DNA of 64,000 nt from Armatimonadota bacterium (GCA_016235455.1 JACRKZ010000166.1:845-64844); one strand, 5' to 3'. Positions 17,481-56,952 are shown, numbered from the stretch's first letter. Numbers and translations are program-made. The notes: generated by a model not told the origin, from the sequence alone.

Positions 17481-17541
17481 GACATACCATTCAGAGCGGC
17501 CGCGTCGGCGAGGAAGCCGGCGCGGCAGGAAGGGAAGACCG

Positions 17542-30318: not shown

Positions 30319-33087
30319 TTATTGCGCGTCGCGGCAGACGGTCGCGTCCGGCACCGCGCCGGGCATGTCGTCCCGCGGCTTGACGGCCAGTTGCTGCCGT
30401 ACCGGCGCGAACACGGCCAGGATGGCCTGATAGTCCGGGTCACTGGTGCCCGCGAAGACTGCCTGACCGCACTTGCCGCTGCCGCCCTGGGCTTTGGCCA
30501 GCGGCGCGGCAGCGAAGCCGTTGAGTTCGGGCCGGTCGAGCCGGGTCCATACCGGCCGCGGCAGCGACTGCGCATGGCACGAGGCGCAGCGCCGCTGGCG
30601 TACGTCGGCCAGCACCTTGTCGAGCCCAGCGGGATAGATGCGGCGGCAGCCGACGGCCAGCGGGTAGGCGGTCTCGCTGGTGCCGTAGTAGGGCACGTTG
30701 AGGTCGATCCAGCTCAGGATGCGTTGCCGCTCGCCGGCCTCGAGCTTCACCCGGGCCTGGCCGTCGGCGCCGGCATGGCCGCCGATGACGATGTCGGCCA
30801 GCCGGCTGCGCGGCGAGCCCCAGGCGCGCGGCGTGATCTCCAGGATGTTGGCCTCCTGGCCGTTGTAGGTGGGGATCCACGACGTGTATGGGTTGTCCAG
30901 CTCGCCCTCGCCGATGGACCGTCTCCCGCGCGCCAGCGTCTCATACGAGACGTTGAAGAAGTCGGTCTTGTCGCCGGCCAGATCGACCCCGCCCGCGGGC
31001 GCCACGCCGTCATGGCAACTCACACAATGCCGGTCCAGCACCGGCTGCACCACCGACGCGTAGTCGAAGCCGACGCCTTGGCCCCAGTCGGGAGGCGTGA
31101 GCGCCGCGGGAGGCGAGGCCAGCGCCGACGGTCGACGTGGCGGCGTGGTCGTCGTGCGCTGCTCGTGACAGCCGACGCAACCTTGCGTCTCGCCCGGCAT
31201 GAGGTGGGTGAAGGTCCTCATGCGCTGGACGGCACGGCCTTCGGCGTCGAGCGCCATGAAGTAGATGGGTACGCCCGCGGGCACCTGGAAGTGCGCCGAG
31301 CCGTCGTCGGCCACGGGTGCGAAGCCCCAGACCTTCTTGCCCGCGTAGGTTGCGCCGCAGGAGATCACCGGGAACTGGAACCCGAAGGCGCGGTTGGCCA
31401 CGTCGGTGCGGACCGGCTTCTCCATCTCCTGCACCACGGCGATGCGCTTCACCTCGCCGCGCTTCACCACTGGCTCCAACCCGCGATAGACGTCCTCGAC
31501 GAACATCGTGGCCCACCCGCCCACGCCCGCCGACGCTGGTTCTGACAACTTCGTGGCGATGGCCGGCACCGCCCGCGCTCGCACCGGCGCGGCGTTGTGG
31601 AAGCCCATGCCGTCGCGCGGCGCGACCACCTCGGCTTCGCTGGTGCGGGCATAGTCGCGCAGCAGCACGGTGCCATCGCGCGACACCAGGTACCACTGGT
31701 CGTCGAGCGGGTAGGGTGTGGCATAGGGCCCGCGGATGTGGTTGCCGCTGCCCTGGTCGACCTTGCCGGCATCGATCTCGGGCGTGAGGTTGGTCAGCGC
31801 GGCCTGGGTGTTGTCGCCGTAGCCACGGTCGATCAGCCCGATGGCGCCGCGAGCCGGGCCGTTGTGCGCGGTCAGCGTGCACAACACCTTGGTGCTGCCG
31901 GGCACCGCGCGAGCTTCCATGATGGTGGCGGGACTGAGCACGCGATTGCCCCAGAATCCGGCCAGACCCGTGCCGTCGGGACTGATGGTCCACAGGCTCT
32001 GGATGGGGATGGCCGGCCGGTCGACGTATTCCCACCGGGAGTAGATGATACGCCCGTCGTTCAGCACGCTCGGCGTGAAGTCGTTGACCAGATTGGCGCT
32101 CAGCCGACGCGCATCGCTGCCGTCGGCGTTCATCCTGAACAGCAGGCCGACGGGCGACACCCAGCAGTAAGCGAACCGGGCCGCGCGCGTGGACAGGAAG
32201 GCGATGCCGCCATCCGGCAGCCAGCAGCCGTTGTAGTCATGCCAGCGGCCGGTGGTCAGTTGCCGGAGTCCGGTGCCGTCGGCGGCGACGGTCCACAGGT
32301 GATAGCCCTGGTCGGTGGCCTGGCGCCAACTGAAGAGGATGGTCCGCGCGTCGGGCGAGACGTCGCAGTCGAGGATCTGCCCCGCGCCGGCGTCGACCAG
32401 CCGTGTCATCGCACCGTCGGGCTCGCGCCGCCACAGGCCGCCGCCGGCCCGGAAGCCCTCGGTGTGGTAGGTGTAGACGTGGCTGGAATCGATGGGGTAG
32501 CGCTGCACCATGACCAGCGGGTCGAGCTTGACCGGGAGTTCGGCCAGCGCCTTGACATCGAGCGTCGACTCGCCGGGCAGCGAGCGCTTGGGCGCCGGCG
32601 TGGCAAAGACCATGATCTCCGATGCGCCGGGGTTGGAGCCGCCATAGGAGCTGCCAAAGACGAAACGGAGCGACTTGGTGACCACTGGCTGGGCCAGCGT
32701 GATCCGCTGCGGGTCGCTGCGCTGCCGGAACTGGCCTGCAGCCAGTTCCTTACTGTCCGCGTCGAGCAGCCGATAGCCCTGCCAGGCTTCGGCCATCTCC
32801 CAGGCGTTGCGCGCGTAGTAGACCACCTCGGCCACGGTGACCGGCTCGGGCCAGGTCAGTGTGAACTCGGCGCCCTGCCGATGCGTGCTCCCGTTGACCG
32901 CCCAGGCCCGGCCGACGTCGTCGTGCGAGCCCGCGCCGGGAATGACGCCGTCGATGGCGCGGTCGGCGCCGTAGGTGTCGTTGAACGCCGACGTGGCGGT
33001 CGCCGTGGCGTGACGAGCCAGGTTCTCGGGCATCTCGGCGGCGGTCAGGCCGCCGAGCGACAGCAGGCAAGCGATCAATGCGCGCAT
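30319..33087 (-). CDS. paralog 2 of discoidin / PD40-propeller / multi-haem c-type cytochrome protein (three CxxCH: GCVGCHE, CVSCHD, RCASCHA)
   Basis: ORF 30319..33510, start at 'MRALIACLLSLGGLTAAE'. Colinear with 4516..7683 ('GETQGCVGCHEQRT...HCVSCHDG...SWIDLNVPYYG'). Confidence 0.7.
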   Translation of the reverse strand: MRALIACLLSLGGLTAAEMPENLARHATATATSAFNDTYGADRAIDGVIPGAGSHDDVGRAWAVNGSTHRQGAEFTLTWPEPVTVAEVVYYARNAWEMAEAWQGYRLLDADSKELAAGQFRQRSDPQRITLAQPVVTKSLRFVFGSSYGGSNPGASEIMVFATPAPKRSLPGESTLDVKALAELPVKLDPLVMVQRYPIDSSHVYTYHTEGFRAGGGLWRREPDGAMTRLVDAGAGQILDCDVSPDARTILFSWRQATDQGYHLWTVAADGTGLRQLTTGRWHDYNGCWLPDGGIAFLSTRAARFAYCWVSPVGLLFRMNADGSDARRLSANLVNDFTPSVLNDGRIIYSRWEYVDRPAIPIQSLWTISPDGTGLAGFWGNRVLSPATIMEARAVPGSTKVLCTLTAHNGPARGAIGLIDRGYGDNTQAALTNLTPEIDAGKVDQGSGNHIRGPYATPYPLDDQWYLVSRDGTVLLRDYARTSEAEVVAPRDGMGFHNAAPVRARAVPAIATKLSEPASAGVGGWATMFVEDVYRGLEPVVKRGEVKRIAVVQEMEKPVRTDVANRAFGFQFPVISCGATYAGKKVWGFAPVADDGSAHFQVPAGVPIYFMALDAEGRAVQRMRTFTHLMPGETQGCVGCHEQRTTTTPPRRPSALASPPAALTPPDWGQGVGFDYASVVQPVLDRHCVSCHDGVAPAGGVDLAGDKTDFFNVSYETLARGRRSIGEGELDNPYTSWIPTYNGQEANILEITPRAWGSPRSRLADIVIGGHAGADGQARVKLEAGERQRILSWIDLNVPYYGTSETAYPLAVGCRRIYPAGLDKVLADVRQRRCASCHAQSLPRPVWTRLDRPELNGFAAAPLAKAQGGSGKCGQAVFAGTSDPDYQAILAVFAPVRQQLAVKPRDDMPGAVPDATVCRDAQ

Positions 33088-33136
33088 GAGGGTGTCCTCA
33101 GACGAGAGTGTGGCAGAGCGCGGTGGCAGACGCAAG

Positions 33137-35590
33137 CTACTTGCCGGCAATGCGCCGTATTGCTTCCACTTCGGCCGGGTCAAACGCTGTCCCATCGGCC
33201 CGCAGCAGGTCGTGATGCCAGACCTTGGGCGCCGGGTCACCGGGCTTGGAGCCCCACGGCATGTAGGTCTGCGTGCGCCCGGCGACCAAGCCCCAGCAGT
33301 AGCTGCCCACCTGCTTCTCCCGCAGCAGTGCCAGATCCGTGGCCCAGCGACTGCCCAGCACACGCGACATCCATTCGGTGCAGAGCAACGGCCGGCCCTG
33401 TGCGGCGAACTCATCGATGGCCGACCGCAGGGCCTGGACGTCGCCGTAACGGTGGAAGGAGACCACGTCCGACAAGGCCAGCATGGTCCTGGCGCAGCCC
33501 GCGGGGCCACCCCACGGCCCGGCGGTCAACGGCTGGCTCGGCGCGGCGGCGCGGGCCCAGCCGAAGGTCGCGGCCAAGAAGGGTTCGCTGCCATCGCCAT
33601 GCGCGCAGTTGCCCGGCTCGTTGTACAGGTCCCAGGCGACAATACGCGGGTCGTCGGCGTGGGTGCCTACCAGATCCTTGACAAACGCCTCGGGCCCCGC
33701 CCATCGGGTCCTGTCGGCGACGATCCCGTGGCCGGGGCTGGGCACCCAGCCGCTGTTGTGGACCCCAGTCACGGGGTCGGGCTGCGGGCCGACGCTCGGC
33801 TCTCGCCCGGCGAACGCGCAGTCGTCGAACAGCACGGGCATCACGCTCTGGCCATGCTTCGCGGCGAGTGCCAGGAAAGCCTCGAAGCGCGCGCGGAAGC
33901 CAGCGGGGTCGTCGGCCCACACCACGTAGTTGAGGAACACGCGCAGCGAGTTGAAGCCCAGACCTTGGGCCCAGCCGAGTTCGCGGTCCATGGTGGGCTG
34001 ATCGAAGGTGGCGGCCTGCCACATCTCGACATCGTTCACGGCGCTGGATGGCAGGTAGTTGCAGCCGACCAGCCAGCCCGCGCGCGCCGACCACTGCGCG
34101 GCGCGTTCCGTTGTCCACCGCGTCGCGGGCAGCGGCTCGGCGGCCACCAACTGCACGTAGGCATCGGTCGCATCGGCCCGCTTGTCGCCGGTCACGCTAA
34201 CCACGAGCTCATGCTGGCCAGGGGCCAGCCCGGTCAGCCGGTGACGCTGGTTCCAGGCCACGGTGGGGCCAAAGGTGTCCAGCGGAGGCAGATCGCGGCC
34301 GTCGAGCGCGAGGCCGGCGATGCCGCAGTCCGGGCCGGACTTGTGCACCAGAGCCAGGCCGGTTCCCGCAAACCTGATCCTGGCTGTGCCACCGGCCTCG
34401 CGGCAGAAATGCAGCGCGCCACCCAACGGGCCGCTGCCTGTCCAGCGTGTCCAGCCGTCGCCGAAGGCGATGCCGGCGTCGTCGTGCGCGGGCAGGCCAG
34501 GCCTGGTCTGCATCTGGCGGTAGTCGCGGTGGGCGAAGTCGAGCGCGGTGTCGTGCGTCAGCGCTCGAATGGCCGTGTGCTCCGCCGGGTCGTACGGTTG
34601 ACCATCACGGTGGTACAGGTCGTGAAACCAGACGGCGGGTTGCGGGGCGCCGCGCTTGCTCGACCAGCCGAACTGGCATTGGGTGCGGCCGTTGACCAGG
34701 CCCCAACTCAGGCAACCGACACCTTCGTCGCGCAGCAGCGACAGGTCGGTCGACCAGACGCTGCCGAGGGGCCTCGCCATCCATTCGGTGCAGACCACCG
34801 GCCGGCCGTGGCGCTTGAAGCGCTCGATGGCCGAACGCAGGCCGTCGCGGTTGCCGTAACAGTGAAAGCTGACGATGTCCGACAGCTCGATCTGCCGCTG
34901 GCTGAGGGCGGCCGACGCACCCCATGGCCCCATGGTCAACGGCTGGCTTGGCCGCGACTCGCGTGCCCAGGTGAAGGTGGCCTCAACCAGGGGCAGGCTG
35001 CGGTCACCCAGGCCGCTGTTGCCCGGCTCGTTGTACAGGTCCCACAGCACGACGCGGGGGTCCTGGCCGAAGCGGCCGACCATGGCCCGCACGTACTTCT
35101 CGAGGTCGGGCCAGGCGCCGCGGTCCTCGACGGCGCGGAGGCCAGGACTCGGTGTCCAGCTCGGCAGGATCATGCCGGGGACAGGTTCGCGTTGCGGGCC
35201 GAGGTGGGGCTCGGTGACCGGTGGGTCGCCAAAGCTGCAGTCGTCGAACAGCACGGGCATGACACGGATGTGGTGCCGGTTGGCTATTGCCAGAAACTGG
35301 TCGAAGCGCCGCTCGGTGCCAGCCGGGTCATCGTGCCACACCAGGTACTGCACAAACACCCGCACAACATTGAAGCCGAGCGTCTGCGCCCAGCCCAGCT
35401 CGCGGTCGATGGTCACGGCGTCGAAGGTGGCAGCCGACCAGAATTCGGTCGTGTTGGCCGCGCTCGAAGGCACGTAGTTGCAGCCCACCAGCCACGGCTG
35501 CGCGCGATACCACTCCCAGGCGCGTTCGGCCGGCCAGGTGGTCGGACCAGCCAGCAGGCTGGACATGATCAGGGGCACGGCGGGGGTCAT
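33137..35590 (-). CDS. secreted protein with two tandem GH5-like (clan GH-A) catalytic modules, each followed by a beta-sandwich domain
   Basis: Internal duplication: 'AERAWEWYRAQPWLVGCNYVPSSAAN...WDLYNEPGNSG...VVCTEWMARP' and 'TERAAQWSARAGWLVGCNYLPSSAVN...WDLYNEPGNCA...LLCTEWMSRV'. Confidence 0.75.
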   Translation of the reverse strand: MTPAVPLIMSSLLAGPTTWPAERAWEWYRAQPWLVGCNYVPSSAANTTEFWSAATFDAVTIDRELGWAQTLGFNVVRVFVQYLVWHDDPAGTERRFDQFLAIANRHHIRVMPVLFDDCSFGDPPVTEPHLGPQREPVPGMILPSWTPSPGLRAVEDRGAWPDLEKYVRAMVGRFGQDPRVVLWDLYNEPGNSGLGDRSLPLVEATFTWARESRPSQPLTMGPWGASAALSQRQIELSDIVSFHCYGNRDGLRSAIERFKRHGRPVVCTEWMARPLGSVWSTDLSLLRDEGVGCLSWGLVNGRTQCQFGWSSKRGAPQPAVWFHDLYHRDGQPYDPAEHTAIRALTHDTALDFAHRDYRQMQTRPGLPAHDDAGIAFGDGWTRWTGSGPLGGALHFCREAGGTARIRFAGTGLALVHKSGPDCGIAGLALDGRDLPPLDTFGPTVAWNQRHRLTGLAPGQHELVVSVTGDKRADATDAYVQLVAAEPLPATRWTTERAAQWSARAGWLVGCNYLPSSAVNDVEMWQAATFDQPTMDRELGWAQGLGFNSLRVFLNYVVWADDPAGFRARFEAFLALAAKHGQSVMPVLFDDCAFAGREPSVGPQPDPVTGVHNSGWVPSPGHGIVADRTRWAGPEAFVKDLVGTHADDPRIVAWDLYNEPGNCAHGDGSEPFLAATFGWARAAAPSQPLTAGPWGGPAGCARTMLALSDVVSFHRYGDVQALRSAIDEFAAQGRPLLCTEWMSRVLGSRWATDLALLREKQVGSYCWGLVAGRTQTYMPWGSKPGDPAPKVWHHDLLRADGTAFDPAEVEAIRRIAGK

Positions 35591-35697
35591 GGCGGCGGCT
35601 CCATTGCGCTGCCAGTTCGAGCGCGGGCGCGCGCCTCCTTCACGCTTGACGCCACGCCCCTCCTTGCCTAGAGTTGAGGGTGTCAGGGAGGTCAGCC

Positions 35698-37152
35698 ATG
35701 GTCAGGCGTACCGCTGTGCTGGTGGTTGGAGGTCTGCTGCTGCTCGGCGCGGCCCGGGCACAGGTGGTGTTCCCGCAGTTCGCCTTCCCGGCCAAAGTCG
35801 CGGGCGGGCATATCGTCTTCAGTCGCCTGATGCCCGTCAAACTGGCGGCTGGGGGGCTCACGGCCGACACCATCGTCTCCAAGCTGTTCGTCATGAACGG
35901 CGACGGCACGAACCCGCAGCCGTTCCTGGTCACGGCCGACCTGACCCAGTTCAAGGAGCCGCGCTGGTCGCCGCAGTTCGACCGGCTGGCCTTCAGCTCC
36001 AACTTCGCCAGCTCGCGCTCGGCCTGCATGACCGACATTTTCGAGGCACGAGCCGGCGGCGTGGTGCGTCGCGTGACCGGCAACGACCTGGTCGGCGCCG
36101 CGCCCATCGGCTATGGGTCGGTGGTCGGCCGCGTTGACCCGCAGTTCAAGGACGACCCCACGGCTGTGCATAAGGGCGGCGAGATCAGCGTCACCGCCCA
36201 GGGCATGGACGGCGCGGTGGTGCATCCGTCGCTGACCGACAACAGCTTCACGCTGCCCCGCGTCGCCGCGGGCGACACGGTGTGGGTCAAGGTCTGGGTC
36301 ACGGAGCGGCTGGGCACGCTGACCATGATCAAGGTGCGCCCCGGCGAGGTCACCAACATCGGCACGGTCAAGCTCAACGAGGGCACGTTCACCGCCTCCA
36401 AGCCCAGCCTCTCGGTGGGCGGGCAGCATGTGGTCGGCATGGGCGGGCTGACTCAGGTGGCGTTGACCGACAACCCCATCGGCGGGGTGATCGGCGAGAC
36501 GGTGCCGGGCTTCCAGGCGGGCAAGCAGAAGACGATCAGCGGCGCCGAGAGCATTTGTGTCTACGAAGGCCGCACCGGCGCGCTGCTGGGCAGTATCGAC
36601 CTGGGCAAGCTGGGCTACGAGCAGGCCAAGGAACCGGCGCTGTCGCCAGACGGCACGGCCATCGCGTGCGCCTGGGGCAAGATGACGCAGGAGAACCTGG
36701 CGCTGGTGCCCGTGGCCAGCGTGCTGGCCAATGCTCCCGCGCCGAAGGTGCTGGTGCCGGGCCAGATGCTCATGTTCCAGCCCGGTGCGCCGATGATCGG
36801 CTGTGGCGGGCCGGTCTGGTCGCCCGACGGCAAGCGCCTCGCCTTCACCCGCACCATCGTCATCGGCGATGGTACGGTCAGCGCGGGCATCTGGGTGGTC
36901 AACGTCGACGGCTCCGGCCTGAAGGAAGTGGCCGCCCAAGGGCTTGAACACCTGTGCTGTCAGCCCTGCTTCTCGCCTGATGGCACGAAGCTGGCGTTCA
37001 CGGCGCTGACCGGCCGGCGGGGCCCGCTGAAGGTCGAGCAGCTCATCGCATCGCAGTTTGGTCTGGACATCTTCAGCGTGGATCTGGCCTCGGGCAAGCA
37101 GACGCGGCTCACGCAGGATGGCGCGAGCTGCGAGCCGGCCTGGGGGCCGTAG
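35698..37152 (+). CDS. secreted TolB/PD40-like beta-propeller repeat protein
   Basis: ATG 35698 after 'agggaggt'. Signal 'MVRRTAVLVVGGLLLLGAARAQ'. 'WSPQFDRLAFSSN', 'WSPDGKRLAFT', 'FSPDGTKLAFTA'. Confidence 0.6.
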   Translation: MVRRTAVLVVGGLLLLGAARAQVVFPQFAFPAKVAGGHIVFSRLMPVKLAAGGLTADTIVSKLFVMNGDGTNPQPFLVTADLTQFKEPRWSPQFDRLAFSSNFASSRSACMTDIFEARAGGVVRRVTGNDLVGAAPIGYGSVVGRVDPQFKDDPTAVHKGGEISVTAQGMDGAVVHPSLTDNSFTLPRVAAGDTVWVKVWVTERLGTLTMIKVRPGEVTNIGTVKLNEGTFTASKPSLSVGGQHVVGMGGLTQVALTDNPIGGVIGETVPGFQAGKQKTISGAESICVYEGRTGALLGSIDLGKLGYEQAKEPALSPDGTAIACAWGKMTQENLALVPVASVLANAPAPKVLVPGQMLMFQPGAPMIGCGGPVWSPDGKRLAFTRTIVIGDGTVSAGIWVVNVDGSGLKEVAAQGLEHLCCQPCFSPDGTKLAFTALTGRRGPLKVEQLIASQFGLDIFSVDLASGKQTRLTQDGASCEPAWGP

Positions 37153-37233: not shown

Positions 37234-38751
37234 ATGAGCACTGGACGATGGCGACCCTTTGTGCTGCTGGCGACGCTGGCGCTGAGCGCCTTGGCGCTGC
37301 GCACCGTGGCCCAGGAAGCGGCCAAGCCCAAGGCGGCCCAGAGCAATGCCAGCCTGCTGACCGCGGACCGCGCGGTCATCGACGCCACCAACGCCGTCGC
37401 CAAGCCGGGCAAGACGACCGCCGCGCCGACCGCGGAGCAGGCCGTCGCCGCCGCGCCGCAGGGCTTTGTGCCGCCTGACCTGGGCAACTACCAGGTCACG
37501 GTCTTCGCCGATGGCGTGGGCCTGGTGCGGCGCGTCGAGGACATCGACCTGTCGGTCGGCCGCAACGAGTTCGCCGTGAGTGAGGTGGCCCGCCGCATCG
37601 ACAGCGGCTCGGCTCGCCTGCGTCCGCTGGACGATCCGAACCGCTTCGTGGTGCTCGAGCAGTCGGGCGGAGCGCCGCGCGACGCCAAGCAGTTGCTCAA
37701 CGCCGCCGTGGGCCGCGACATCCGCGTCCGCGACGGCGACTACACGGTATCTGGCAAGCTGGTCAGCGTGGACGACGAGGGCGTCATCCTGGCCGCCGAC
37801 GGCGAGGTGCATGTGCATCCCAAGGGCCAGGTCATCCTGCCCAAGGAGGCCGCGCTGCCCGACCTGACGCCCAAGCTCTCGTGGATGCTCGACACCGAGC
37901 GCGCGGGCAAGGCGCCGGCCGAGATCACCTACCTGACCCACGGCCTGACCTGGTCCGCCGACTACGCGGTGACGGTGCTGCCCCAAGGCCAGTTGGTCAG
38001 CTTCGACGCCTGGGTCAACCTCGACAACACCTGCGGTGTCGACTTCGACAACGTCGGCTTCATCTTCGCCGGTGACGCGGCCCTGCCGACGCCGCCGGCT
38101 CCCGCCGCCGGCGCAGCGCCGAACGCGGTGCCCATGGAGTCGGCCGCCGGCAAGCGCTTCTACCTGCCGCGCCGGGCCAGCCTGGCCAACGGCAGCGCCC
38201 GTCGCTACCAACTCGCGCAGGCCACCGCGGCGCGTGGCGCGCTGCGCTACGTGGCCACGGTCGGGCCCGAGGGCCTGCAGGGGCTGCGCTCGGCGGTGCG
38301 GCTGGTCAACAATGGCGCCGCCGGCCTGGGCGTCCCGCTGCCGCCGGGCCCGGTACGCATCTATGCGCCCGACGCGTTGGGCCGCCTGCAGTTGGTCGGC
38401 CGGCAGACGCTGGCCACCGTGTCGCCCGATGCGCCGTTCACCTTCGAACTGGGCGGCGACGCGCCGGAGGGCTTGACCGCCACGGTCGAGACCGCCAACG
38501 ACGGCGGCGCCCTGCGCCGCACGGTCCGCCTGCGCAACCAGCGGGCTGAAGATGCCGCCGTGACCGTCGTCGAGAAGCGCGCCGCCGGCTGGCAGTTCGT
38601 CTCGGCCAGCAGCACGTTCAGCCCGGTCAGCGGTGGTCAGTCGAGCACCGAAGTGACCGTGCCCGCCGGCGGTGCCGTCGAGGTCCGCTACCAGATCCAA
38701 TTGCCGGGCGCCCCGACCACGGGAGCTCGCGGACGCGCCGGAGGCGCCTGA
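37234..38751 (+). CDS. secreted DUF4140/DUF4139-like (MuiA-family) protein
   Basis: Signal 'MSTGRWRPFVLLATLALSALALRTVAQE'. Architecture and length (~505 aa) typical of COG5316-like proteins. Identified by pattern recognition only. Confidence 0.4.
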   Translation: MSTGRWRPFVLLATLALSALALRTVAQEAAKPKAAQSNASLLTADRAVIDATNAVAKPGKTTAAPTAEQAVAAAPQGFVPPDLGNYQVTVFADGVGLVRRVEDIDLSVGRNEFAVSEVARRIDSGSARLRPLDDPNRFVVLEQSGGAPRDAKQLLNAAVGRDIRVRDGDYTVSGKLVSVDDEGVILAADGEVHVHPKGQVILPKEAALPDLTPKLSWMLDTERAGKAPAEITYLTHGLTWSADYAVTVLPQGQLVSFDAWVNLDNTCGVDFDNVGFIFAGDAALPTPPAPAAGAAPNAVPMESAAGKRFYLPRRASLANGSARRYQLAQATAARGALRYVATVGPEGLQGLRSAVRLVNNGAAGLGVPLPPGPVRIYAPDALGRLQLVGRQTLATVSPDAPFTFELGGDAPEGLTATVETANDGGALRRTVRLRNQRAEDAAVTVVEKRAAGWQFVSASSTFSPVSGGQSSTEVTVPAGGAVEVRYQIQLPGAPTTGARGRAGGA

Positions 38752-38755
38752 TACC

Positions 38756-39586
38756 ATGACCTTCACCGTCGCCCACAGCCCCGATGCTGATGACGCTTTC
38801 ATGTTCTATGCCCTGGCCCACCGCAAGGTGGACACGGGCGACCGCCGCTATGAGCACGAGCTCAACGACATCGAAACGCTGAACCGATGGGCACTCGAGG
38901 GCCGTTACGAAGTCACCGCCGTCAGCATTCACGCCTATGCCTACCTGGCCGACAAGTACGCGCTGCTCAGCGCCGGCGCCAGCATGGGCGAGGCCAACTA
39001 CGGGCCGCGGCTCGTCGCGCGCCGGCCGATGACGCTCGACGAGGTGAAGGGCGTGACCGTGGCCGTGCCTGGCACGCTGACGTCTGCCTATCTTGTGCTC
39101 AAGCTGTTCGCGCCCGACGTCGAAACCGTCGTCATGCCGTTCGACACCATCCCCGAGGCCGTGGCCACGGGCCAGGTGGAGGCCGGCGTGCTGATCCACG
39201 AAGCGCAGCTCACCTATGCCGAGCAGGCGCTGACCCTGGTGCTCGACTTCGGCAAGTGGTGGTACGACCGGCACCAGCTGCCGCTGCCGCTGGGCGGCAA
39301 CGTCGTGCGGCGTGACCTTGGCGATGAGCTCATTGCGCACATCGGTGCCGACCTCAAGGCGTCCATCCAGTATGCGTTGGCCCATCGTGATGAGGCCCTG
39401 GACTACGCGCTGGGCTTCTCGGGCGGGCTCGACCGTGGACGCGGTGACGAGTTCGTGGGCATGTATGTCAACGACCGCACCGTGGACTACGGCGACGAGG
39501 GCCGCGAGGCCGTGCGCCGGCTGCTGGCCGAAGGCGCTGAGCGGGGCATCATCCCGCACGCGGTGACGCCGCACTTCGTGGGTTAG
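38756..39586 (+). CDS. mqnD: MqnA/MqnD-family protein, most like 1,4-dihydroxy-6-naphthoate synthase (futalosine pathway)
   Basis: 'MTFTVAHSPDADDAFMFYAL', 'ETLNRWALEGRYEVT', 'GVLIHEAQLTYAEQ', 'LPLPLGGNVVRRDLG' match conserved MqnD blocks. Start 5 nt after the preceding stop. Confidence 0.55.
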   Translation: MTFTVAHSPDADDAFMFYALAHRKVDTGDRRYEHELNDIETLNRWALEGRYEVTAVSIHAYAYLADKYALLSAGASMGEANYGPRLVARRPMTLDEVKGVTVAVPGTLTSAYLVLKLFAPDVETVVMPFDTIPEAVATGQVEAGVLIHEAQLTYAEQALTLVLDFGKWWYDRHQLPLPLGGNVVRRDLGDELIAHIGADLKASIQYALAHRDEALDYALGFSGGLDRGRGDEFVGMYVNDRTVDYGDEGREAVRRLLAEGAERGIIPHAVTPHFVG

Positions 39587-39616
39587 GCGGCGCGGGTCGC
39601 GGGGAACAGACCCATC

Positions 39617-40498
39617 ATGCGAGCGACCCTGCGCCAGGTTCTGGTCATTGCCCGGCTGACCGCGGCCGATGCGTTGCGGTCGCCGCTCTATCACCTCGTC
39701 TGGCTGACTGCCCTGTGCGTCGCCGGCACGCTGCCACTGCTCGACTACCTGGCGCTGCATGAGAAGCGCCGGCTGGTGGTCGACAGTTTGCTGGCCCTGG
39801 CCCTCACCGGTGGCTCACTGCTGGGCATCCTGCTGGCGGCCGACGGTGTGGGCGGCGAGGTGCGCCGCGGCACGCTGGCCCTGCTGCGCACGCGTGGCGC
39901 GGAGCCCGCGGCGTGGCTCGGCGGCAAGCTGCTTGGCCTGGCCGCGGCGCTGCTGCCCTTCGCCTTCACACTTGGTCTGGCCGTTATCTTCGGCTCGCGC
40001 GTGGCGGCTCAGCCCTTCCACAACGACGCAATGGCCGCGCGCGGCTGGTGGCTGGCGCTGCTCGGCGCGACCGCGCTGTGGGCGGGCAGCCGCGGCCGGC
40101 TCAGGTTGGCCTGGCTGCTGCCGCTGTCATTGGCGTTGGCTTTCGCCCTTTTGCGCGGTGGGTGGGAGCGAGACGATCTCGCCGTCCTGCCGGCGGTGGT
40201 AGGCACGGGCTGCGGCATGGTGCTGGCGGCCTGGGTGGCGGCTGTTCTGGCGCTGGCCGTCGATGTCGTCACGACGGTGTGGCTGGGCGTCGTCATCTTC
40301 CTGGTCGGCGTGGCGGCCGATAGCTGGCTGACCGGCGCGGGTCGCCTGCTGTGGTTGGTGGGGCCGAGCTGGTCGCTCTTCCAGCAGACCGATGCGGGCT
40401 GGCCAGCGACGGCGCGCGCGGCGGGCTATCTGCTGGCCTACGGCCTGGCGTTGGTGGCCTTTGGCGCCGGCCTGCGGGCCGCGAAGGAGCCGCGATGA
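39617..40498 (+). CDS. ABC-2-type transporter permease-like membrane protein
   Basis: 6 predicted TM helices. Stop overlaps the next start (ATGA). Confidence 0.5.
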   Translation: MRATLRQVLVIARLTAADALRSPLYHLVWLTALCVAGTLPLLDYLALHEKRRLVVDSLLALALTGGSLLGILLAADGVGGEVRRGTLALLRTRGAEPAAWLGGKLLGLAAALLPFAFTLGLAVIFGSRVAAQPFHNDAMAARGWWLALLGATALWAGSRGRLRLAWLLPLSLALAFALLRGGWERDDLAVLPAVVGTGCGMVLAAWVAAVLALAVDVVTTVWLGVVIFLVGVAADSWLTGAGRLLWLVGPSWSLFQQTDAGWPATARAAGYLLAYGLALVAFGAGLRAAKEPR

Positions 40499-41343
40499 GC
40501 GCCGTGCTGCGAGCCGACAGCCTGACTCGCGTCTTCCGCGACGCCTGGGGCCGGCCGCGGGTGACGGCGGTCAGCGACGTCAGCTTCGAGGTCGGCCGCG
40601 GTGAGGTGGTGGGGCTGCTAGGCCCCAACGGTGCGGGCAAGTCGACCACTGTCAAGCTGCTACTCGGCCTGCTGCGGCCGACGGCCGGAGCCGCACGCAT
40701 CCTTGGCCAGCCGCCCGACAGTCGCGCGGCGCGAGCCGCGGTGGGCTACCTGCCGGAGGAGACGCGCCTTTACCCGCACCTGACGGCGACCGAGACGCTG
40801 GCCTTCTTTGCCCAGGTCGCCGGTGTGAAGGCCGACCTGCCCGCACTGCTGGCGCGTGTCGGCCTGACCGGCGCGGCCCACCGGCGGGTCGGCGAGTACA
40901 GCAAGGGCATGAACCGCCGGCTGGGCCTGGCGCAGGCGCTGCTGGGCTCGCCGGAGCTGCTGGTGCTCGACGAGCCCACTTCGGGGCTCGATCCACTGGG
41001 CCGGCGCGATGTGAAGCAGCTCATCGGCGAGTTGGCCGCGGGCGGCACCACCATCCTGCTGTCCAGCCACCTGCTGGCCGAGGTGGAGGACGTCTGCGAC
41101 CGCGTGCTCATCCTCTGTGGCGGCCGGTTGGCGGCGCAGGGCAGCCTGTGGGAACTGCTGAGCGATCCCGATGAGTTGACGCTACGCCTGCCGCGGCTTG
41201 ATGCCGAGACGCTGGCGCGCGTGCTGGCGGCCGTGCGCGCCGAGACCGGCGCCGCGGTCACCGTCCAGCCCGCATCGCTGGGGCTGGAAGCCTACTTCCT
41301 CGACCTGGTGGCGCGTCTGGGCGCTGGAGGGGGCCAGCCATGA
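40495..41343 (+). CDS. ABC transporter ATP-binding protein
   Basis: Walker A 'GPNGAGKST', signature 'YSKGMNRRLGLAQAL', Walker B 'LLVLDEPTSGLD'. Confidence 0.85.
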   Translation: MSAVLRADSLTRVFRDAWGRPRVTAVSDVSFEVGRGEVVGLLGPNGAGKSTTVKLLLGLLRPTAGAARILGQPPDSRAARAAVGYLPEETRLYPHLTATETLAFFAQVAGVKADLPALLARVGLTGAAHRRVGEYSKGMNRRLGLAQALLGSPELLVLDEPTSGLDPLGRRDVKQLIGELAAGGTTILLSSHLLAEVEDVCDRVLILCGGRLAAQGSLWELLSDPDELTLRLPRLDAETLARVLAAVRAETGAAVTVQPASLGLEAYFLDLVARLGAGGGQP

Positions 41344-42467
41344 GGCCCGCGCTGGCGGTGGCGCATGCGACGCTGGTCGCCGCTTGGCGCGGTGGCCCAG
41401 CGCCGGCCATGGCCGGGCTGCTGGCGGCGCTGCTGCTGTGGCTGCCGAGCCAGGTCGGCCGTGACGACGTCGGGCTGTGGCAGATCACGTTGAGCGTGGC
41501 GCAAGCGTTGCTGCTGCTTGGCACCGGCTGGTTGGCGGTGGATAGCGTCGGCCGCGACTTGCGCGAGGGCCAGGCCGCCCTGCTGGCCACGCGCCCGCTG
41601 AGCCGCGGCGCCTGGTGGCTGGGCCGCTGGCTGGGCGTCGTGGCCGTGGCCTGGGTGCTGTTGGCAGGCGTCGTGATGCTGGTCCTGGCGCAGGCCCGCG
41701 GGCGGTGCCCACTGCCGCACACCGAGACGCGCGCGGCCATCGACCGCTCGCTCGTGCTGCAGCCCGACCAGCCCGTGACCGTGTCATTGCCCGGCGGGCC
41801 GGGCGAGTTGCGGCTGACCGTGCGCGCGCCCGAGCCGCTGAGCCGACCGGCACGCCTTGACCTTGCCGCCGCCAGCGCGCCTGACCGCGCCGTCGACGTT
41901 TGGCCCGACCGCCTCTACCGGCTGCCGTGGCCCGGCGGCGGGTCGATCACGCTGACCAATCGCGGCGCCGGGGCGCTGGCGGTGATGTCGCGCGACGATC
42001 TGCGGCTGCGCTGCGCCGCGGGCAACCCGTGGGCCAACCTGGGCCGCGTGGTCGTGCTGATGGCGCTGCAACTCGCCTTCATCGCGGCGCTGGGTGCGGC
42101 GGCGGCCAGTTGCCTGAGCCATCCGGTGGCGCTGTTCGCGGTGCTGGCCTGGCTGGTGGCGGCGGCGCATGCGCCGTTGCTGCCCGATGCGCCGATCGTG
42201 GCACCAGGCGAGCCGGGCCACCATGAAGCGGCTCCCTCGCCGCTGTGGCTGGTCACGCTCAACGGCGGTCGGCTGACCGGGCTGTGGGTGACCGACGCGC
42301 TGCACCACACCTGGCGGCTGGGCGACCTGGGGGATGGCCGGCTGGTGCCCGGCGGTGACCTTGTCGCGTCCTGCTGGCGGCTGGGGCTGGGCCAGACCGG
42401 CGCCGTGTTGCTCATCGGCGTGCTGCTCTGGCGGCGGCGCGAGTTCGGGCTGGAGGACCGGCCATGA
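41340..42467 (+). CDS. membrane protein with large extracytoplasmic loop (putative second permease component)
   Basis: N- and C-terminal TM clusters flanking a ~150-aa soluble segment. ATGA-coupled on both sides. Confidence 0.45.
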   Translation: MRPALAVAHATLVAAWRGGPAPAMAGLLAALLLWLPSQVGRDDVGLWQITLSVAQALLLLGTGWLAVDSVGRDLREGQAALLATRPLSRGAWWLGRWLGVVAVAWVLLAGVVMLVLAQARGRCPLPHTETRAAIDRSLVLQPDQPVTVSLPGGPGELRLTVRAPEPLSRPARLDLAAASAPDRAVDVWPDRLYRLPWPGGGSITLTNRGAGALAVMSRDDLRLRCAAGNPWANLGRVVVLMALQLAFIAALGAAAASCLSHPVALFAVLAWLVAAAHAPLLPDAPIVAPGEPGHHEAAPSPLWLVTLNGGRLTGLWVTDALHHTWRLGDLGDGRLVPGGDLVASCWRLGLGQTGAVLLIGVLLWRRREFGLEDRP

Positions 42468-43606
42468 GGCGTTGGCTGGTCATCATAGCCGCGTTGGCTG
42501 TCGCCGCGAGCCTGCGACCGGTGCCGCGGCCGCGACGGGCCATGCCCGACGCGCCGCCCGGCGTGTCGCTGGCGGCCACGGCGCTGGGCGGGTTCAACGG
42601 CGTTGCAGCCAGTTACGTGTGGCTCTACGCTTCACGCCGCGAGGAGGCCGGCCAGCCCTTTGAGTTGGTGCGCGCCGCGCGCTGGGTGTCGGCGTTGCAG
42701 CCCAACCTCGGCTCGCTCTACGACTTCCAGGCCTGGAACCTGGCCACCAACGTGGCGGACACCTTCGGCTCGCCGCCCGAGCGCTGGCCGTGGGTGGAGG
42801 CCGGTCTGAACCTGCTGTACGACGAGGGCCTGGCCCGGCGTGGCGACGACCCGCGGCTGCCCGGCGCTCTGGCCTCGCTGCTGCTGGGTCGCGTGTGTGG
42901 CGGCCAGGACGATGCGGCTGAGTACTTCCGCCAGGCCTTCGCGGCGCGCTGGACACCCATCGTCGGTCCACCACCGACGCGCTGGCCGGCGGTCGCCGGG
43001 TTGGAGCGCTGGCGCATGGAGGCGCGTTCGTGCGCCGAGATCGACAGCCGGTTCGGCCCGCTCGACTGGCGCACGGGTTGGGCGCATGCGTTGTACTGGG
43101 CGCGGCGCGGGGCGCTGGCTTCGCCTTCACGGCGGCAGTCGCGGCCGCTCTGGTCGTGGCAGATCGAAGCCCTGCGCGGCGCCTGCCTGGACGGTCGCAT
43201 CATCACCGCGCCCGGCCAGGGGGTGTTCGTCACGGTGCCCATGCCGGAACTCGCGGTCAAGGTGGAGGCGCTGTACGACGAGGCACTGGCGCGGCTGCCC
43301 CGCGACCAGGGCCTGCGCGCTGGTCGCCAGGCATGGCGCGACGAGGCGGCGCTGATGCTGGTCGCGTATGGCCTGTCGAGCGATGAGTCCGCCGCCGAGC
43401 GCACCGTGGCCGCACTCACCGACGGCGATGCCGGGATGGCGCAGTCCGTGGCCGACAGCTACGCACTCAGGGCGCTGCTCTGCGGCCGGTTGGGCGATGC
43501 CGCGGCGGCTCGTGGGCTGACTGGCATGGCACAGCGCGTGGCGCGGTCCGCGGGGCTGGACTGGTCGGCGGTGCAGCGCCGGGCTGGCGAGGCGCTCGGT
43601 CGTTAG
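42464..43606 (+). CDS. secreted alpha-helical hypothetical protein
   Basis: Signal 'MRRWLVIIAALAVAASLRP'. Last gene of the coupled block, followed by a terminator. Confidence 0.4.
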   Translation: MRRWLVIIAALAVAASLRPVPRPRRAMPDAPPGVSLAATALGGFNGVAASYVWLYASRREEAGQPFELVRAARWVSALQPNLGSLYDFQAWNLATNVADTFGSPPERWPWVEAGLNLLYDEGLARRGDDPRLPGALASLLLGRVCGGQDDAAEYFRQAFAARWTPIVGPPPTRWPAVAGLERWRMEARSCAEIDSRFGPLDWRTGWAHALYWARRGALASPSRRQSRPLWSWQIEALRGACLDGRIITAPGQGVFVTVPMPELAVKVEALYDEALARLPRDQGLRAGRQAWRDEAALMLVAYGLSSDESAAERTVAALTDGDAGMAQSVADSYALRALLCGRLGDAAAARGLTGMAQRVARSAGLDWSAVQRRAGEALGR

Positions 43607-43630: not shown

Positions 43631-43662
43631 CCAAAAGCAAAAGCTCCGGCCGAAGCCGGAGC
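43631..43662 (-). terminator. rho-independent terminator of rpsT (gctccggc-ttcg-gccggagc followed by UUUUGCUUUUG on the minus strand); also ends the converging plus-strand operon
   Basis: Perfect 8-bp stem with 4-nt loop, followed by a T-rich run on the minus strand. Confidence 0.65.
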
Positions 43663-43698
43663 CAAACCGTTATGTAGCCAACCGAGCCTAGGCCAAGC

Positions 43699-43965
43699 CT
43701 ATTCAGCGCTCGTGTCGACAGCCTTGTGCAGGCGAGCAGCGCGGCGGCGAGCATGGTTGATGTGGACAATCCCGCGCTTGGCGGCCTTGGCCAACTTGCT
43801 CTCCGCGGCGGCGGCGAGCTTCTGCGCCTCGGCGGTATCGCCGGCAGCCACAGCCTCGCGGGCCTTCTTGATGATGGTCTTGATCTCGGACTTGGCCGCG
43901 ACGTTGCGCAGGCGGCGGCGTTCGCTCTGCAGTACTCGCTTCTTCGCCGATGCTTTGTTGGGCAC
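43699..43965 (-). CDS. rpsT: 30S ribosomal protein S20
   Basis: 'MPNKASAKKRVLQSERRRLRNVAAKSEIKTIIKK...AKRGIVHINHARRRAARL' is the canonical S20 sequence. Confidence 0.9.
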   Translation of the reverse strand: MPNKASAKKRVLQSERRRLRNVAAKSEIKTIIKKAREAVAAGDTAEAQKLAAAAESKLAKAAKRGIVHINHARRRAARLHKAVDTSAE

Positions 43966-51649: not shown

Positions 51650-51908
51650 GGCAGGCTCCCACGGCCGAGCCACAGGCCTCGGCGCGTCCCACATCGGTCG
51701 ATGCCACCGTGTTCGTCGCGCTGGCCGCCGCACCTCCGCCACGCGCAGGAGCCAGCCGCCGCGCCGCGAAGCATGGGGCGCCGCGCCGCGACAGCGGCCG
51801 GCGCCACAGGCGATGAGTCGGCGCCCAGCGAGGTAAGTAAGCGCTCATTCACCTGTTCTGCTACACTCGGCGGGCGGCCCGGTCACACTGGGTCCAGAGA
51901 ACGATGAC

Positions 51909-53951: not shown

Positions 53952-54874
53952 TGCAGGCCGTCAGCGTCACCGGGCTCAGTCGCCACTACGGCACCACGCG
54001 GGCCGTGGACGACGTGAGCTTCGAGGTGGCCAGCGGCGAGATCTTCGGCATCGTCGGCCCTGACGGCGCCGGCAAGACCACGCTCATGCGGCTGCTGGCG
54101 GGCATCGTCACGCCCACGTCCGGCGGCGCCATGGTCGCCGGGTGCGACGTGGTGGCCGATCCCGAGGCCGTCAAGCAGCGCATCGGCTACCTGTCCCAGG
54201 TCTTCTCGCTGTACCGTGATCTGACGATCGGAGAGAACATCGACTTCGTGGCCGACCTCTACAGCGAGGACCTGGTCCGCGCGGGCGAAGCCAAGGCCCG
54301 CATGTTGGCCATGACCGGCCTGGCGCCGTTCGTCGACCGCCAGGCGGGCCGGTTGTCGGGCGGCATGAAACAGAAGCTGGGTCTGATGTGCGCGCTGATT
54401 CACCGGCCCACGGTTCTGCTGCTGGATGAGCCGACGACGGGTGTCGACCCGCTCTCACGGCGCGACTTCTGGCGCATTCTGGCCGACCTGCCGAGCCAGG
54501 GCGTGACCATTGTGCTCAGCTCGCCGTACATGGACGAAGCGTCACGCTGCCATCGGCTGGCGCTCATGGACCATGGTCGCGTGCTGGCGGTGGGCAGCGC
54601 CGCCGAGCTGGCCGCGCGGGTCAGCGGCCAGATGGTCGAGGTGGTCACACCCGACCCGCGTGGCGCGCTGCGCGTGCTGGAGGGCCTGCCGGGCCTGCTC
54701 AGCGCCACGCCGTTTGGCGATGCGCTGCATGTGCGGCTGGACGGCGACGACGCCGTGGCGCGGGTGAGCGCGGTGTTGGCCGGCGCCGGCGTGGTGTTCA
54801 GTGAAGCCCGCCCGGCCGAGGCCAGCCTGGAAGACGCCTTCATCGACCTCGTGGGCCGGGGGGAGACGGCATGA
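53951..54874 (+). CDS. ABC transporter ATP-binding protein (YbhF N-half-like)
   Basis: ATG overlaps the HlyD stop (TGATG). 'GPDGAGKTT', 'LSGGMKQKLGLMCAL', 'LLLDEPTTGVD'. Confidence 0.85.
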   Translation: MQAVSVTGLSRHYGTTRAVDDVSFEVASGEIFGIVGPDGAGKTTLMRLLAGIVTPTSGGAMVAGCDVVADPEAVKQRIGYLSQVFSLYRDLTIGENIDFVADLYSEDLVRAGEAKARMLAMTGLAPFVDRQAGRLSGGMKQKLGLMCALIHRPTVLLLDEPTTGVDPLSRRDFWRILADLPSQGVTIVLSSPYMDEASRCHRLALMDHGRVLAVGSAAELAARVSGQMVEVVTPDPRGALRVLEGLPGLLSATPFGDALHVRLDGDDAVARVSAVLAGAGVVFSEARPAEASLEDAFIDLVGRGETA

Positions 54875-55812
54875 GCGAGCCAGCCCCGGCCATCGTGGTG
54901 CGCGACCTGGTCAAGCGCTTCGGCGCCTTCGCCGCGGTGGACCACGTCTCGCTGAGCGTCGCGCGCGGCGAGGTATTCGGCTTCCTCGGGCCCAACGGCT
55001 GCGGCAAGTCGACCACCATCCGCATGATCTGCGGGCTGCTGGGGCCGACCAGCGGCAGCATCGAGGTGGCCGGCCTGGATGTGCGCACCCATGCCGAGCA
55101 GATCCGCGCGCGGGTGGGGTACGTGGCGCAGTTCTTCAACCTGTACCGCGACCTGACGGTCTATGAGAACCTGACCTTCTACGGCGGGGTCTACGGTGTG
55201 CCGCGCGCCGAGCTGCGGTCGCGCGTCGAGCACTGGTGTGAGCGGCTAGACCTGAGCCGATACGGACGGGTGCTGTCGGGCGAGCTGTCGACCGGCGTGC
55301 AGCGCAGCCTCGCGCTGGCCGCGGCGGTGCTGCACGAGCCGGCGGTGCTGCTGCTCGACGAGCCCACCAGCGGCGTTGACCCCATTGCGCGGCGTGCCTT
55401 CTTCGATGTCATCGGCGAACTGGCCGACGGCGGCACCAGCATCCTGGTCACCACGCACGTCATGGACGAAGCGGACCGCTGCGGGCGGCTGGCGCTGATG
55501 GATCGCGGCAAGCTGGTGGCCGAAGGCACGCCCAGTGAGATCCGCGCCATGGGCGGCACCGACATCTGGCAGGTGTCGGCCGACCCGCCCAGCCGCGCGC
55601 TGACGCTGGCCGAGCAGCATCCGGGCGTCGACGCGCCGGCGCTGTTTGGCACGCGGCTGCAGTTCAGGGTGAGCGACGGCACCACCGCGGTTGCCGTGGC
55701 GCAGTGGCTGCGCGACCAGGGCGTGACCTGCGATGAGCCGCGGCCGGTGCGCGCCACCATCGAGCACGCCTTCCTGCAACTGCTGCGCCGGGACGACGGA
55801 GACAACGAATGA
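54871..55812 (+). CDS. ABC transporter ATP-binding protein (YbhF C-half-like)
   Basis: 'GPNGCGKST', '[15 protein letters not shown]', '[11 protein letters not shown]'. ATGA-coupled. Confidence 0.85.
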
Positions 55813-56939: not shown

Positions 56940-56952
56940 GGACGGAGACACC

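Follow-up and report, generated by a model that had tools for sequence, protein, structure and literature searches.

In an Armatimonadota bacterium, a gene resembling mqnD lies between a gene for a secreted DUF4139-like protein and a set of ABC-2-like transporter genes, which raises the question of whether the enzyme and the transporter serve a common function or merely share a gene order. In the stretch of DNA that we analysed (64,000 nt; hereafter the window), the cluster comprises six genes, as a preliminary description had claimed; they are co-directional on the plus strand, with GC3 values of 0.84–0.89. The NCBI calls of the two end genes are identical in length to ours (505 aa for g1, HZB16_23420; 380 aa for g6, HZB16_23445), and the tag numbering between them is consistent with six genes in succession. 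The same description had every junction as an ATGA overlap or a gap of less than 10 nt. This holds for g1/g2, which are separated by 4 nt, and for g3/g4, g4/g5 and g5/g6, which overlap by ATGA, but not for g2/g3, which are 30 nt apart. In relatives, too, no junction is looser than g2/g3, where the genes lie 19 nt (L169), 55 nt (L168) and 124 nt (L003) apart. The six genes are presumably co-transcribed.

The product of g2 (38756–39586, plus strand; 276 aa) matches Pfam family PF02621 over profile positions 2–251 of 252 (241 bits against a cut-off of 26; E=1.8e-71). This family has been divided into DUF178 (the MqnA type) and DUF191 (the AF1704 type) (PMC2174479). The sole PDB matches to g2 at E<=0.01 were AF1704 from Archaeoglobus (1zbm; 3.7e-74, 51% identity) and TTHA1568, the MqnD of Thermus thermophilus (2czl/3a3u; 3.7e-61, 44% identity), with no MqnA-type chain among them, which places g2 closer to the MqnD type than to the MqnA type. 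The likeness to these members of the former DUF191 branch extends over the full length of g2 (about 275 aa), and includes the absence of a signal peptide and the shared motifs SPxxxDxFxFYA, ETLNR, G(L/V)(L/I)IHE and LPLPLG. The differences are the position of the gene, with a secreted DUF4139-like protein encoded on one side and an ABC-2 module on the other, and two clade-wide substitutions, G150A and R223G. The earlier identification of g2 as an MqnD homolog is therefore borne out by both the PF02621 score and the identity to Thermus MqnD. A sequence scan of g2 found no hydrophobic segment, signal peptide or lipobox; its first beta-strand begins at residue 3 and its alignment to the solved structures at residue 4. 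The protein is thus predicted to be cytoplasmic, with no export signal.

Upstream, g1 (37234–38751, plus strand; 505 aa) has a signal-peptide-like N terminus and weak, co-linear matches to DUF4140 (17.1 bits, E=7.7e-3; cut-off 27) and DUF4139 (20.3 bits, E=5e-4; cut-off 31.8), and it also matches TIGR02231 weakly (23.5 bits, E=2e-5; cut-off 112.6). It resembles the DUF4139/MuiA (mucoidy inhibitor; PF13598/TIGR02231) family in this domain order and in its signal peptide, and differs in that g1 itself falls under every cut-off. Its remote homologs P0275–P0277 (26–30% identity) contain PF13598, and one of them (P0275; E=5e-23 to g1) scores 41 bits against that model, above the cut-off of 31.8. 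Taken together, these matches suggest that g1 belongs to the DUF4139 (MuiA-like) family, albeit as a divergent member. The earlier label of a secreted DUF4140/4139-like protein thus stands on the signal peptide and the remote homologs, but not on matches of g1 itself. We know of no established biochemical function for this family. Among the loci examined, g1 adjoins mqnD only in those of Armatimonadota.

The next three genes had been described as a permease–ATPase–permease-like set, and our searches are compatible with this. The ATPase, g4 (40495–41343, plus strand; 282 aa), matches PF00005 (114.7 bits, 6.3e-33) and has intact Walker A (GPNGAGKST), Walker B (LLVLDEPT) and H-loop motifs. Its top NCBIfam matches are the DrrA (TIGR01188; 1.1e-58) and GldA subfamilies, both below cut-off, and its nearest solved chains are the nucleotide-binding domains of ABCA4/1/7/3 (7e-63), followed by NosF (2.2e-54); g4 is thus predicted to be an ABC ATPase of the ABC-2/type V class. 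The flanking proteins, g3 (39617–40498, plus strand; 293 aa) and g5 (41340–42467, plus strand; 375 aa), have about six hydrophobic segments each and no significant Pfam match. For g3, the hydropathy profile indicates about six transmembrane segments, the second of which is followed by the motif E-x-R-x-G-T...R...GK. The window protein itself has no Pfam or PDB match, but its homolog in L112 matches ABC2_membrane_4 (1.5e-5, below cut-off) and that in L169 has a faint match to ABC2_membrane_2. In g5, an insert of about 120 residues lies between TM3 and TM4, and the window copy lacks about 85 insert residues that most relatives have. The match of g5 to ABC2_membrane_3 is not significant (E=0.072), and its PDB search gave nothing significant either, the NosY match being at E=2.1. 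Its homologs match ABC2_membrane_2 weakly and GldF at 2.5e-4, both below cut-off; an ABC2_membrane_2 match at 1.9e-4 among the permease homologs is also below cut-off. Through these weak or transitive matches, g3 and g5 are probably ABC-2-like permeases.

Three known systems resemble this set in part. The NosFY components of the NosDFY(L) copper-delivery ABC-2 complex (PDB 7o0y) share with it the proximity of g4 to NosF and small permeases of about six transmembrane segments; at other loci the module moreover comes with an accessory protein in the periplasm and is linked to an ATPase for heavy metals. In contrast to NosFY, the operon encodes no NosD-like beta-helix domain and no NosL, has two unlike permeases instead of one, and has a TPR-like solenoid as the accessory protein. 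A NosDFY copper-maturation system was rejected as a candidate given the lack of a NosD-like domain in the operon and the non-significant NosY match. The gliding-motility transporter GldA/GldF/GldG also combines an ATPase, a small ABC-2 permease and a membrane-anchored accessory protein, and g4 matches GldA at 1.5e-52; a g5 homolog accounts for the weak GldF match. However, the scores are far from the equivalog cut-offs (178.9 versus 402.6 for GldA and 21.1 versus 288.5 for GldF), and neither the six operon proteins nor the scanned relatives showed a GldG-type domain, so this candidate was rejected as well. Among solved structures, the nucleotide-binding domain of g4 is matched best by the ABCA lipid exporters (ABCA1/3/4/7), which belong to the same type V class and likewise have an extracytoplasmic domain within the permease. 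They differ in being eukaryotic full transporters made of a single chain, whose extracellular domains are very large, and no homology of g3 or g5 to them was detected.

The last gene, g6 (42464–43606, plus strand; 380 aa), encodes an all-helical protein with an N-terminal hydrophobic helix (anchor or signal), in keeping with the secreted helical protein noted earlier at the operon end. Its fold is of the TPR-type alpha-solenoid class, and the helix probably holds it in the membrane. The family, of which g6 serves here as founding member, has no Pfam model and comprises 1396 cluster representatives at 50% identity. It is a large unnamed family of probably membrane-anchored TPR-like proteins, encoded nearly always after an ABC-2 ATPase and a permease.

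This association is visible in 80 metagenome loci centred on g6, where the order is ATPase, g5-like, g6-like. Homologs of the g5 family occur in 62 of the 80; a g5-like gene adjoins g6 in 48/53 loci and the ATPase is found in 30/35. In its extended form, seen for example in L112 and L170, the module encloses three SPFH genes (HflK/C-like) together with a P-type ATPase of the heavy-metal (P1B) group. Of the 28 loci whose upstream flank exceeds 5.6 kb, 15 have this form, whereas the window copy is without the SPFH and P1B genes. The module appears to be a conserved envelope system of poorly studied phyla, in many genomes with SPFH scaffold proteins and a P-type ATPase for heavy metals enclosed.

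The preliminary description suggested examining operon conservation in relatives. We found that the order g1–mqnD–g3...g6 is kept in seven Armatimonadota-type loci (the window, L003, L087, L095, L168, L169 and L170), and that it persists, also in L170 with its extended module, while g6 identity drops to about 37%. Among the four copies of g2 that were aligned (window, L003, L087 and L095), identity is 70–80%. By the yardstick of that description the operon is thus conserved, and simple inertia would not readily account for such persistence.

Two readings of g2 other than an ordinary MqnD have to be considered. It might be a neofunctionalised MqnD paralog with another naphthoate-like chemistry, the true mqnD lying elsewhere in the genome. 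In line with such a paralog, and as noted earlier for the surroundings of g2, no second PF02621 or radical-SAM domain was found among about 45 ORFs scanned in the 64 kb window, and no other mqn gene lies within 10 kb on either side of g2 in L003, L169 and L170. The mqn genes are, however, commonly dispersed around genomes. The clade-wide changes at otherwise conserved positions also fit a paralog: G150A adjoins the His-Glu pair, and R223G is the sole non-conservative change; site 223 is nevertheless not conserved in Thermus MqnD, which has Q there. Overall, of the 79 columns with at least 95% conservation among its other homologs, g2 retains 75. A phylogeny of the paralog had been suggested as a check, and the tree of 85 g2 homologs tracks the phyla, with Armatimonadota as its own phylum-level branch and no rate acceleration; identity to other phyla is 54–59%, the same as among those phyla themselves. 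About 40 bp upstream of the orthologs in 17 loci lies a radical-SAM gene whose C-terminal region is of the CofH/MqnC type, and about 1.1 kb upstream of those in 11 loci a UbiA prenyltransferase. This linkage to MqnC/E-type radical-SAM and UbiA genes is a clade-level one, seen in Acidobacteriota orthologs. The phylum-like tree, the retained columns and the Acidobacteriota mqn neighbours argue for a housekeeping futalosine enzyme and against the moonlighting MqnD proposed earlier, and we consider a neofunctionalised paralog very unlikely. Acidobacteria, Planctomycetes and Gemmatimonadetes are users of the futalosine pathway, the number of MqnD-positive proteomes being equal to the number surveyed (PMC3914697). 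Fimbriimonas produces MK-10 and MK-11, and the only vitamin-K-related genes reported in its genome paper are ubiE and a quinone reductase (PMC4072686). Even less credible, to the point of being nearly dismissible, is that g2 serves the neighbouring ABC transporter as its substrate-binding protein. The reading follows the NCBI name of P0001, which is identical to g2 ('ABC transporter substrate-binding protein'), and the PF02621 fold is indeed similar to that of periplasmic binding proteins (PMC2174479). Against it stand the missing signal peptide and lipobox, a first beta-strand that begins as early as residue 3, and the mqn genes adjoining g2 orthologs. In addition, g4 falls in the exporter-type ABC-2/ABCA/NosF class, which to our knowledge does not use binding proteins. 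An ABC importer with a binding protein was rejected, g2 being signal-less and g4 of an exporter-type class, and the NCBI label is probably wrong.

A further possibility is that g2 is functionally coupled to the module, which might export or traffic an MqnD-related product (a quinone species, for instance, or 1,4-dihydroxy-6-naphthoate as a means of cross-feeding) or need to have its expression matched to menaquinone synthesis, in which case the retention of mqnD in the operon would be accounted for. Such coupling would fit the position of mqnD directly upstream of g3 in all seven Armatimonadota loci, with short and extended forms of the module alike, and exporters of soluble quinone precursors have been postulated and never identified (PMC4746308). 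A separate adjacency in Isosphaeraceae (n=3) points the same way: there a g6-like gene is followed after 155 bp by mqnD, in an order different from that of Armatimonadota, and this mqnD is not sister to the Armatimonadota genes in the mqnD tree. The 155-bp gap weakens that case, however, as does the aconitase gene that follows mqnD; the mqnD–aconitase pair also occurs in the module-less relatives L029 and L052. The wider distribution argues against coupling: g1 and g2 occur in just 2 of the 80 g6-centred loci, leaving 78 without mqnD, and the module occurs in only 3 of 80 g2-centred genomes, all Isosphaeraceae and with profile searches included, leaving 77 without it. Moreover, g2/g3 is the loosest junction (19–124 nt), and elsewhere the module has SPFH proteins and an ATPase for heavy metals embedded in it rather than quinone genes. 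These counts also tell against a dedicated naphthoate exporter as a version of the small-molecule export system put forward earlier. We therefore regard a functional link between mqnD and the module as unlikely.

We consider it probable that the cluster joins two unrelated functions, an ordinary MqnD (g2) and a reduced copy of a widespread ABC-2 module (g3–g6), in one Armatimonadota-specific gene order. As an MqnD tightly coupled to g1, the gene for the secreted DUF4139-like protein, g2 would be a cytoplasmic enzyme with a periplasmic-binding-protein fold that makes 1,4-dihydroxy-6-naphthoate from cyclic de-hypoxanthine futalosine, a step of the futalosine route to menaquinone. In the module, g3 and g5 may form a heterodimeric permease powered by two copies of the g4 ATPase, with the N-terminal helix of g6 in the membrane and its TPR-like solenoid in the periplasm as an adaptor for a substrate or partner protein. 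The enclosed SPFH genes and P1B ATPase in about half of the well-flanked other loci make an envelope- or metal-related job most likely, that is, export or mechanotransduction of the NosFY/ABCA kind and not naphthoate chemistry, although the genes on which this reading depends are missing from the window copy. A more far-reaching proposal, to which we give only a small chance, is that g3–g6 are the minimal form of an undescribed envelope machine of Armatimonadota, Planctomycetota, Verrucomicrobiota and Kiritimatiellota. This machine would consist of an ABC-2 heterodimer with a membrane-anchored TPR partner, its full form nesting three HflK/C-like SPFH proteins and a P1B ATPase; in Armatimonadota it would be tied to menaquinone synthesis through g1–mqnD, for example by handling naphthoate or quinone or by assembling a quinone-dependent periplasmic metalloprotein.

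An isolated mqnD alone is no sign of new chemistry, and should g2 be nothing more than MqnD, the chief practical consequence is a correction of the NCBI annotation. The link to mqnD in Armatimonadota is among the few clues to the function of the module on which experiments could be designed.

Downstream of the operon, where a clean terminator had been described, a GC-rich hairpin with a 9-pair stem and a 4-nt loop (43642–43663; computed fold, strand unassigned) lies between g6 and the convergent rpsT (43699–43965; PF01649, 5e-24). The hairpin is real, but its T-run (TTTGCTTTTG) is on the minus strand, the plus strand continuing CAAACCG. On the basis of a consensus scan, this orientation indicates that the hairpin terminates rpsT.

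The block at 37234–43606 comprises six plus-strand open reading frames (g1–g6), with a third-position G+C content of 0.84–0.89, as in real genes, in a window of about 70% G+C; the NCBI calls for the two end genes (HZB16_23420 and HZB16_23445) have the same lengths. These encode a secreted DUF4139-like protein (g1, 37234–38751), an MqnD-type protein (g2, 38756–39586), two ABC-2-like permeases (g3, 39617–40498; g5, 41340–42467), an ABC ATPase (g4, 40495–41343) and a TPR-like protein (g6, 42464–43606). The preliminary description held that every junction is an overlap or a gap of less than 10 nt. This is correct for g1/g2, which are 4 nt apart, and for g3/g4, g4/g5 and g5/g6, which share ATGA overlaps, but not for g2/g3, where the gap is 30 nt; the same junction is also the loosest in relatives (19 to 124 nt). 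Scanning for promoters revealed no sigma-70-like site either ahead of g1 or in the g2/g3 gap, and neither Rfam nor tRNA searches gave a match anywhere in the window. The clean terminator said to close the operon had to be reassigned. The hairpin 3′ of g6 (43642–43663) carries its T-run on the minus strand, and the consensus scan predicts it to be the terminator of the convergent rpsT gene (43699–43965). It may also stop plus-strand transcription, although it is not a canonical terminator for that strand.

Conservation of the operon in relatives was borne out: the order g1, mqnD, g3 to g6 is kept in seven Armatimonadota loci (the window, L003, L087, L095, L168, L169 and L170). Between the window and L003, identity is 70% for g2, 43% for g1, 37% for g3, 56% for g4 and about 37% for g6. 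A gene for a 161-amino-acid Metallophos_2 phosphoesterase overlaps the g6 stop codon in L003 (15314–15799), L168 (10098–10583) and L169 (15802–16287); the window lacks this gene, and there rpsT lies convergent to g6 instead. The other flanking genes vary among these loci, and the conserved unit is therefore the six-gene block. A PD40 β-propeller gene (35674–37152), considered as a seventh member, was rejected, as it is not kept upstream of g1 in L003, L168, L169 or L170.

We conclude that g2 is most likely a housekeeping MqnD, given its database matches, its lack of a signal peptide, its place among homologs and what is known of the phyla concerned. The PF02621 match runs end to end (241 bits), and at E ≤ 0.01 structures of just two relatives were matched, AF1704 (51% identity) and Thermus TTHA1568 (44%), the latter deposited as 'Menaquinone biosynthetic enzyme'; no MqnA-type chain was among the structure matches at that threshold. 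The old families DUF178 and DUF191 correspond to this same split between MqnA-type and MqnD-type proteins (PMC2174479). An identical protein (P0001, 100% identity) is named 'ABC transporter substrate-binding protein' by NCBI, which is probably a fold-based misannotation, because no signal peptide was found on g2 and it groups with MqnD orthologs. Homologs with 54–64% identity occur in Gemmatimonadota, Acidobacteriota, Planctomycetota, Aquificota and Rubrobacteraceae. In a neighbour-joining tree of 85 homologs those phyla come out as clades and the four Armatimonadota sequences form a separate branch, with the Armatimonadota proteins 54–59% identical to those of other phyla, the level seen among those phyla themselves. 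Moreover, g2 of the window retains 75 of the 79 columns that are at least 95% conserved in other homologs, and the sole non-conservative change across the Armatimonadota clade is R223G, at a position where Thermus MqnD has Q.

The neighbours of g2 orthologs point the same way. Of the 80 genome loci, 17 have, some 40 bp upstream of the ortholog, a radical-SAM gene whose product has the CofH/MqnC C-terminal region, and 11 have a UbiA prenyltransferase gene about 1.1 kb upstream. Zhi et al. reported the futalosine pathway in Gemmatimonadetes and in every member of Acidobacteria and Planctomycetes that they sampled, and in these three phyla the MqnD-positive proteomes are as numerous as the proteomes surveyed (PMC3914697). 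Within Armatimonadota, Fimbriimonas ginsengisoli makes MK-10 and MK-11, and the only vitamin-K-related genes reported in its genome paper are ubiE and a quinone reductase (PMC4072686); these quinones and this gene set fit a futalosine route. A literature search returned nothing relevant on MqnD with ABC transporters, or on futalosine with Armatimonadetes. As had been described, g2 has no other mqn genes nearby: among about 45 window ORFs scanned against Pfam, there was no second PF02621 and no radical-SAM domain. The only other window gene with any possible quinone connection encodes a class I SAM methyltransferase (17413–18396, plus strand), with a best match to the generic Methyltransf_31 and a secondary match to UbiE/COQ5 (1.1 × 10−14).

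The association of mqnD with the transporter genes had been taken to suggest moonlighting chemistry or a distinct export system. This idea is mostly explained away by the ortholog-like tree position and conserved columns of g2 and by the distribution of the g3–g6 module, which is largely independent of mqnD. Around g6 relatives, sampled in 80 metagenome loci, an ABC ATPase is followed by a g5-like permease and then the g6-like gene almost without exception: where the upstream sequence reaches 1.5 kb or more, the permease is present in 48 of 53 loci, and where it reaches 3 kb or more, the ATPase is present in 30 of 35. A g3-like permease occurs in about 50 of the 80, and homologs of g1 and g2 in only two (L087 and L095), both with the six-gene order of the window. 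Conversely, profile searches of 80 genomes centred on g2 orthologs recovered the module in only three, all Isosphaeraceae (L004, L013 and L024). There the order is ATPase, 808-amino-acid permease, g6-like gene, a 155-bp gap, mqnD and aconitase, and the mqnD–aconitase pair also occurs in the module-less relatives L029 and L052. A real functional link between the module and menaquinone synthesis would account for the persistent gene order in Armatimonadota and for this second, looser adjacency; a rough post hoc estimate puts the probability of a second independent adjacency within 10 kb at a few per cent. Set against the separation of module and mqnD elsewhere, we regard such a link as improbable, with a modest chance of being real. 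The mqnD tree gives no support to a joint horizontal transfer of mqnD and module genes between Armatimonadota and Isosphaeraceae, and that idea was discarded. The Isosphaeraceae module (L004:3651–9846; L013; L024) has a single g5-like permease and a conserved upstream gene of 144 amino acids that matches no family; no gene resembling g3 was detected in this module.

We therefore favour the reading that an ordinary MqnD and a secreted DUF4139-like protein are encoded ahead of an ABC-2 module, itself a reduced copy of a widespread type. The nearest solved relatives of the ATPase g4 are ABCA nucleotide-binding domains and NosF, which places it, by sequence, in the ABC-2/type V exporter class. Both g3 and g5 have about six hydrophobic segments and, after the second, the motif E-x-x-G-(T/Q)...P-x-x-R...G-(K/R)-x-L, which we take to be a feature of NosY/GldF-type permeases. 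Sequence and profile searches of Pfam and the PDB gave no significant match for either protein itself, and their homologs match ABC2_membrane_2, ABC2_membrane_4 and GldF weakly. The g5 of the window lacks about 85 residues of an extracytoplasmic insert present in most family members (alignment columns about 160–235), and L003 and L168 carry partial deletions at the same site. A second, conventional ABC-2 system, unrelated to g3–g6, lies at 51837–58071 (plus strand); there, two permeases with strong matches to Pfam ABC2_membrane_3 are encoded together with an ABC ATPase and an HlyD-like membrane-fusion protein.

No Pfam family covers g6. A word-index search found only three relatives; it took a full HMMER profile search, run over 1.84 billion representatives, to identify 1,396 relatives at E ≤ 1 × 10−3 and 867 at E ≤ 1 × 10−10. 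Named members come from Kiritimatiella and Verrucomicrobiia; the UniRef label 'DUF4034' on a Kiritimatiella member was not reproduced with current Pfam. An AlphaFold2 model built on a 90-relative alignment is all-helical and confident (pLDDT 93.2, pTM 0.90), superseding a model from three sequences only (pLDDT 58.6). Across the family, helix 1 is strongly hydrophobic (mean 2.4) and preceded by a positively charged N terminus, and helix 2, which has Arg and Asp in its interior, is amphipathic (1.4). We infer that the N terminus is an anchor or signal that places the solenoid outside the cytoplasm. Some members from Verrucomicrobiia (Limisphaerales; P0192, P0210 and cluster members) have an FKBP-type peptidyl-prolyl isomerase domain at the C terminus, a hint that the TPR-like partner may serve as a chaperone or adaptor.

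In 15 of the 28 loci with enough upstream sequence, the module takes an extended form in which the g3-like permease is separated from the ABC ATPase, g5 and g6 by three SPFH (HflK/C-like, Band_7) genes and a P-type ATPase gene. Examples are L112 (199–11428), with a P-type ATPase typed as heavy-metal P1B (TIGR01525, 544 bits), and L170 (9939–19870); others are L100, L107, L115, L140, L149, L150, L153, L155 and L159. In L170, assigned to Armatimonadota UBA10988, the order is g1, mqnD, g3, three Band_7 genes, P-type ATPase, ABC ATPase, g5 and g6. We propose that a g3/g5 heterodimer with two g4 subunits would form a type V ABC complex, with g6 as a periplasm-facing TPR partner that would recruit a substrate or another partner. 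Given the SPFH proteins and P1B ATPase associated elsewhere, and NosF and ABCA as the nearest ATPases, the complex would most likely act in envelope-related or metal-related export or in mechanotransduction. MqnD is already known, as are ABC-2 transporters with accessory proteins; no description of the g6 accessory family or of the eight-gene extended form appears to exist in the libraries searched. This widespread unnamed module, mildly interesting in itself, is a by-product of the analysis.

The secreted protein g1 has a signal peptide and weak, co-linear, below-cut-off matches to DUF4140 and DUF4139, on the latter of which the literature search found nothing relevant. The word-index search gave six relatives. 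Remote homologs (26–30% identity) carry PF13598, and one of these, P0275, adjoins uvrB rather than mqnD.

Elsewhere in the window, three proteins of 1,000–1,200 amino acids contain a 'hydrazine synthase alpha middle domain' (PF18582; 4087–7683, plus strand; 30319–33525 and 58738–61746, minus strand). Besides this domain, two of them have DUF7402 and the third a CBM-like domain as well as weak cytochrome c motifs. Sulfate-activation genes (9221–12108, minus strand) encode a fused CysN-type GTPase with APS kinase and a CysD-like PAPS_reduct-domain protein, and an AraC-type regulator (12076–13011) is divergent from them.
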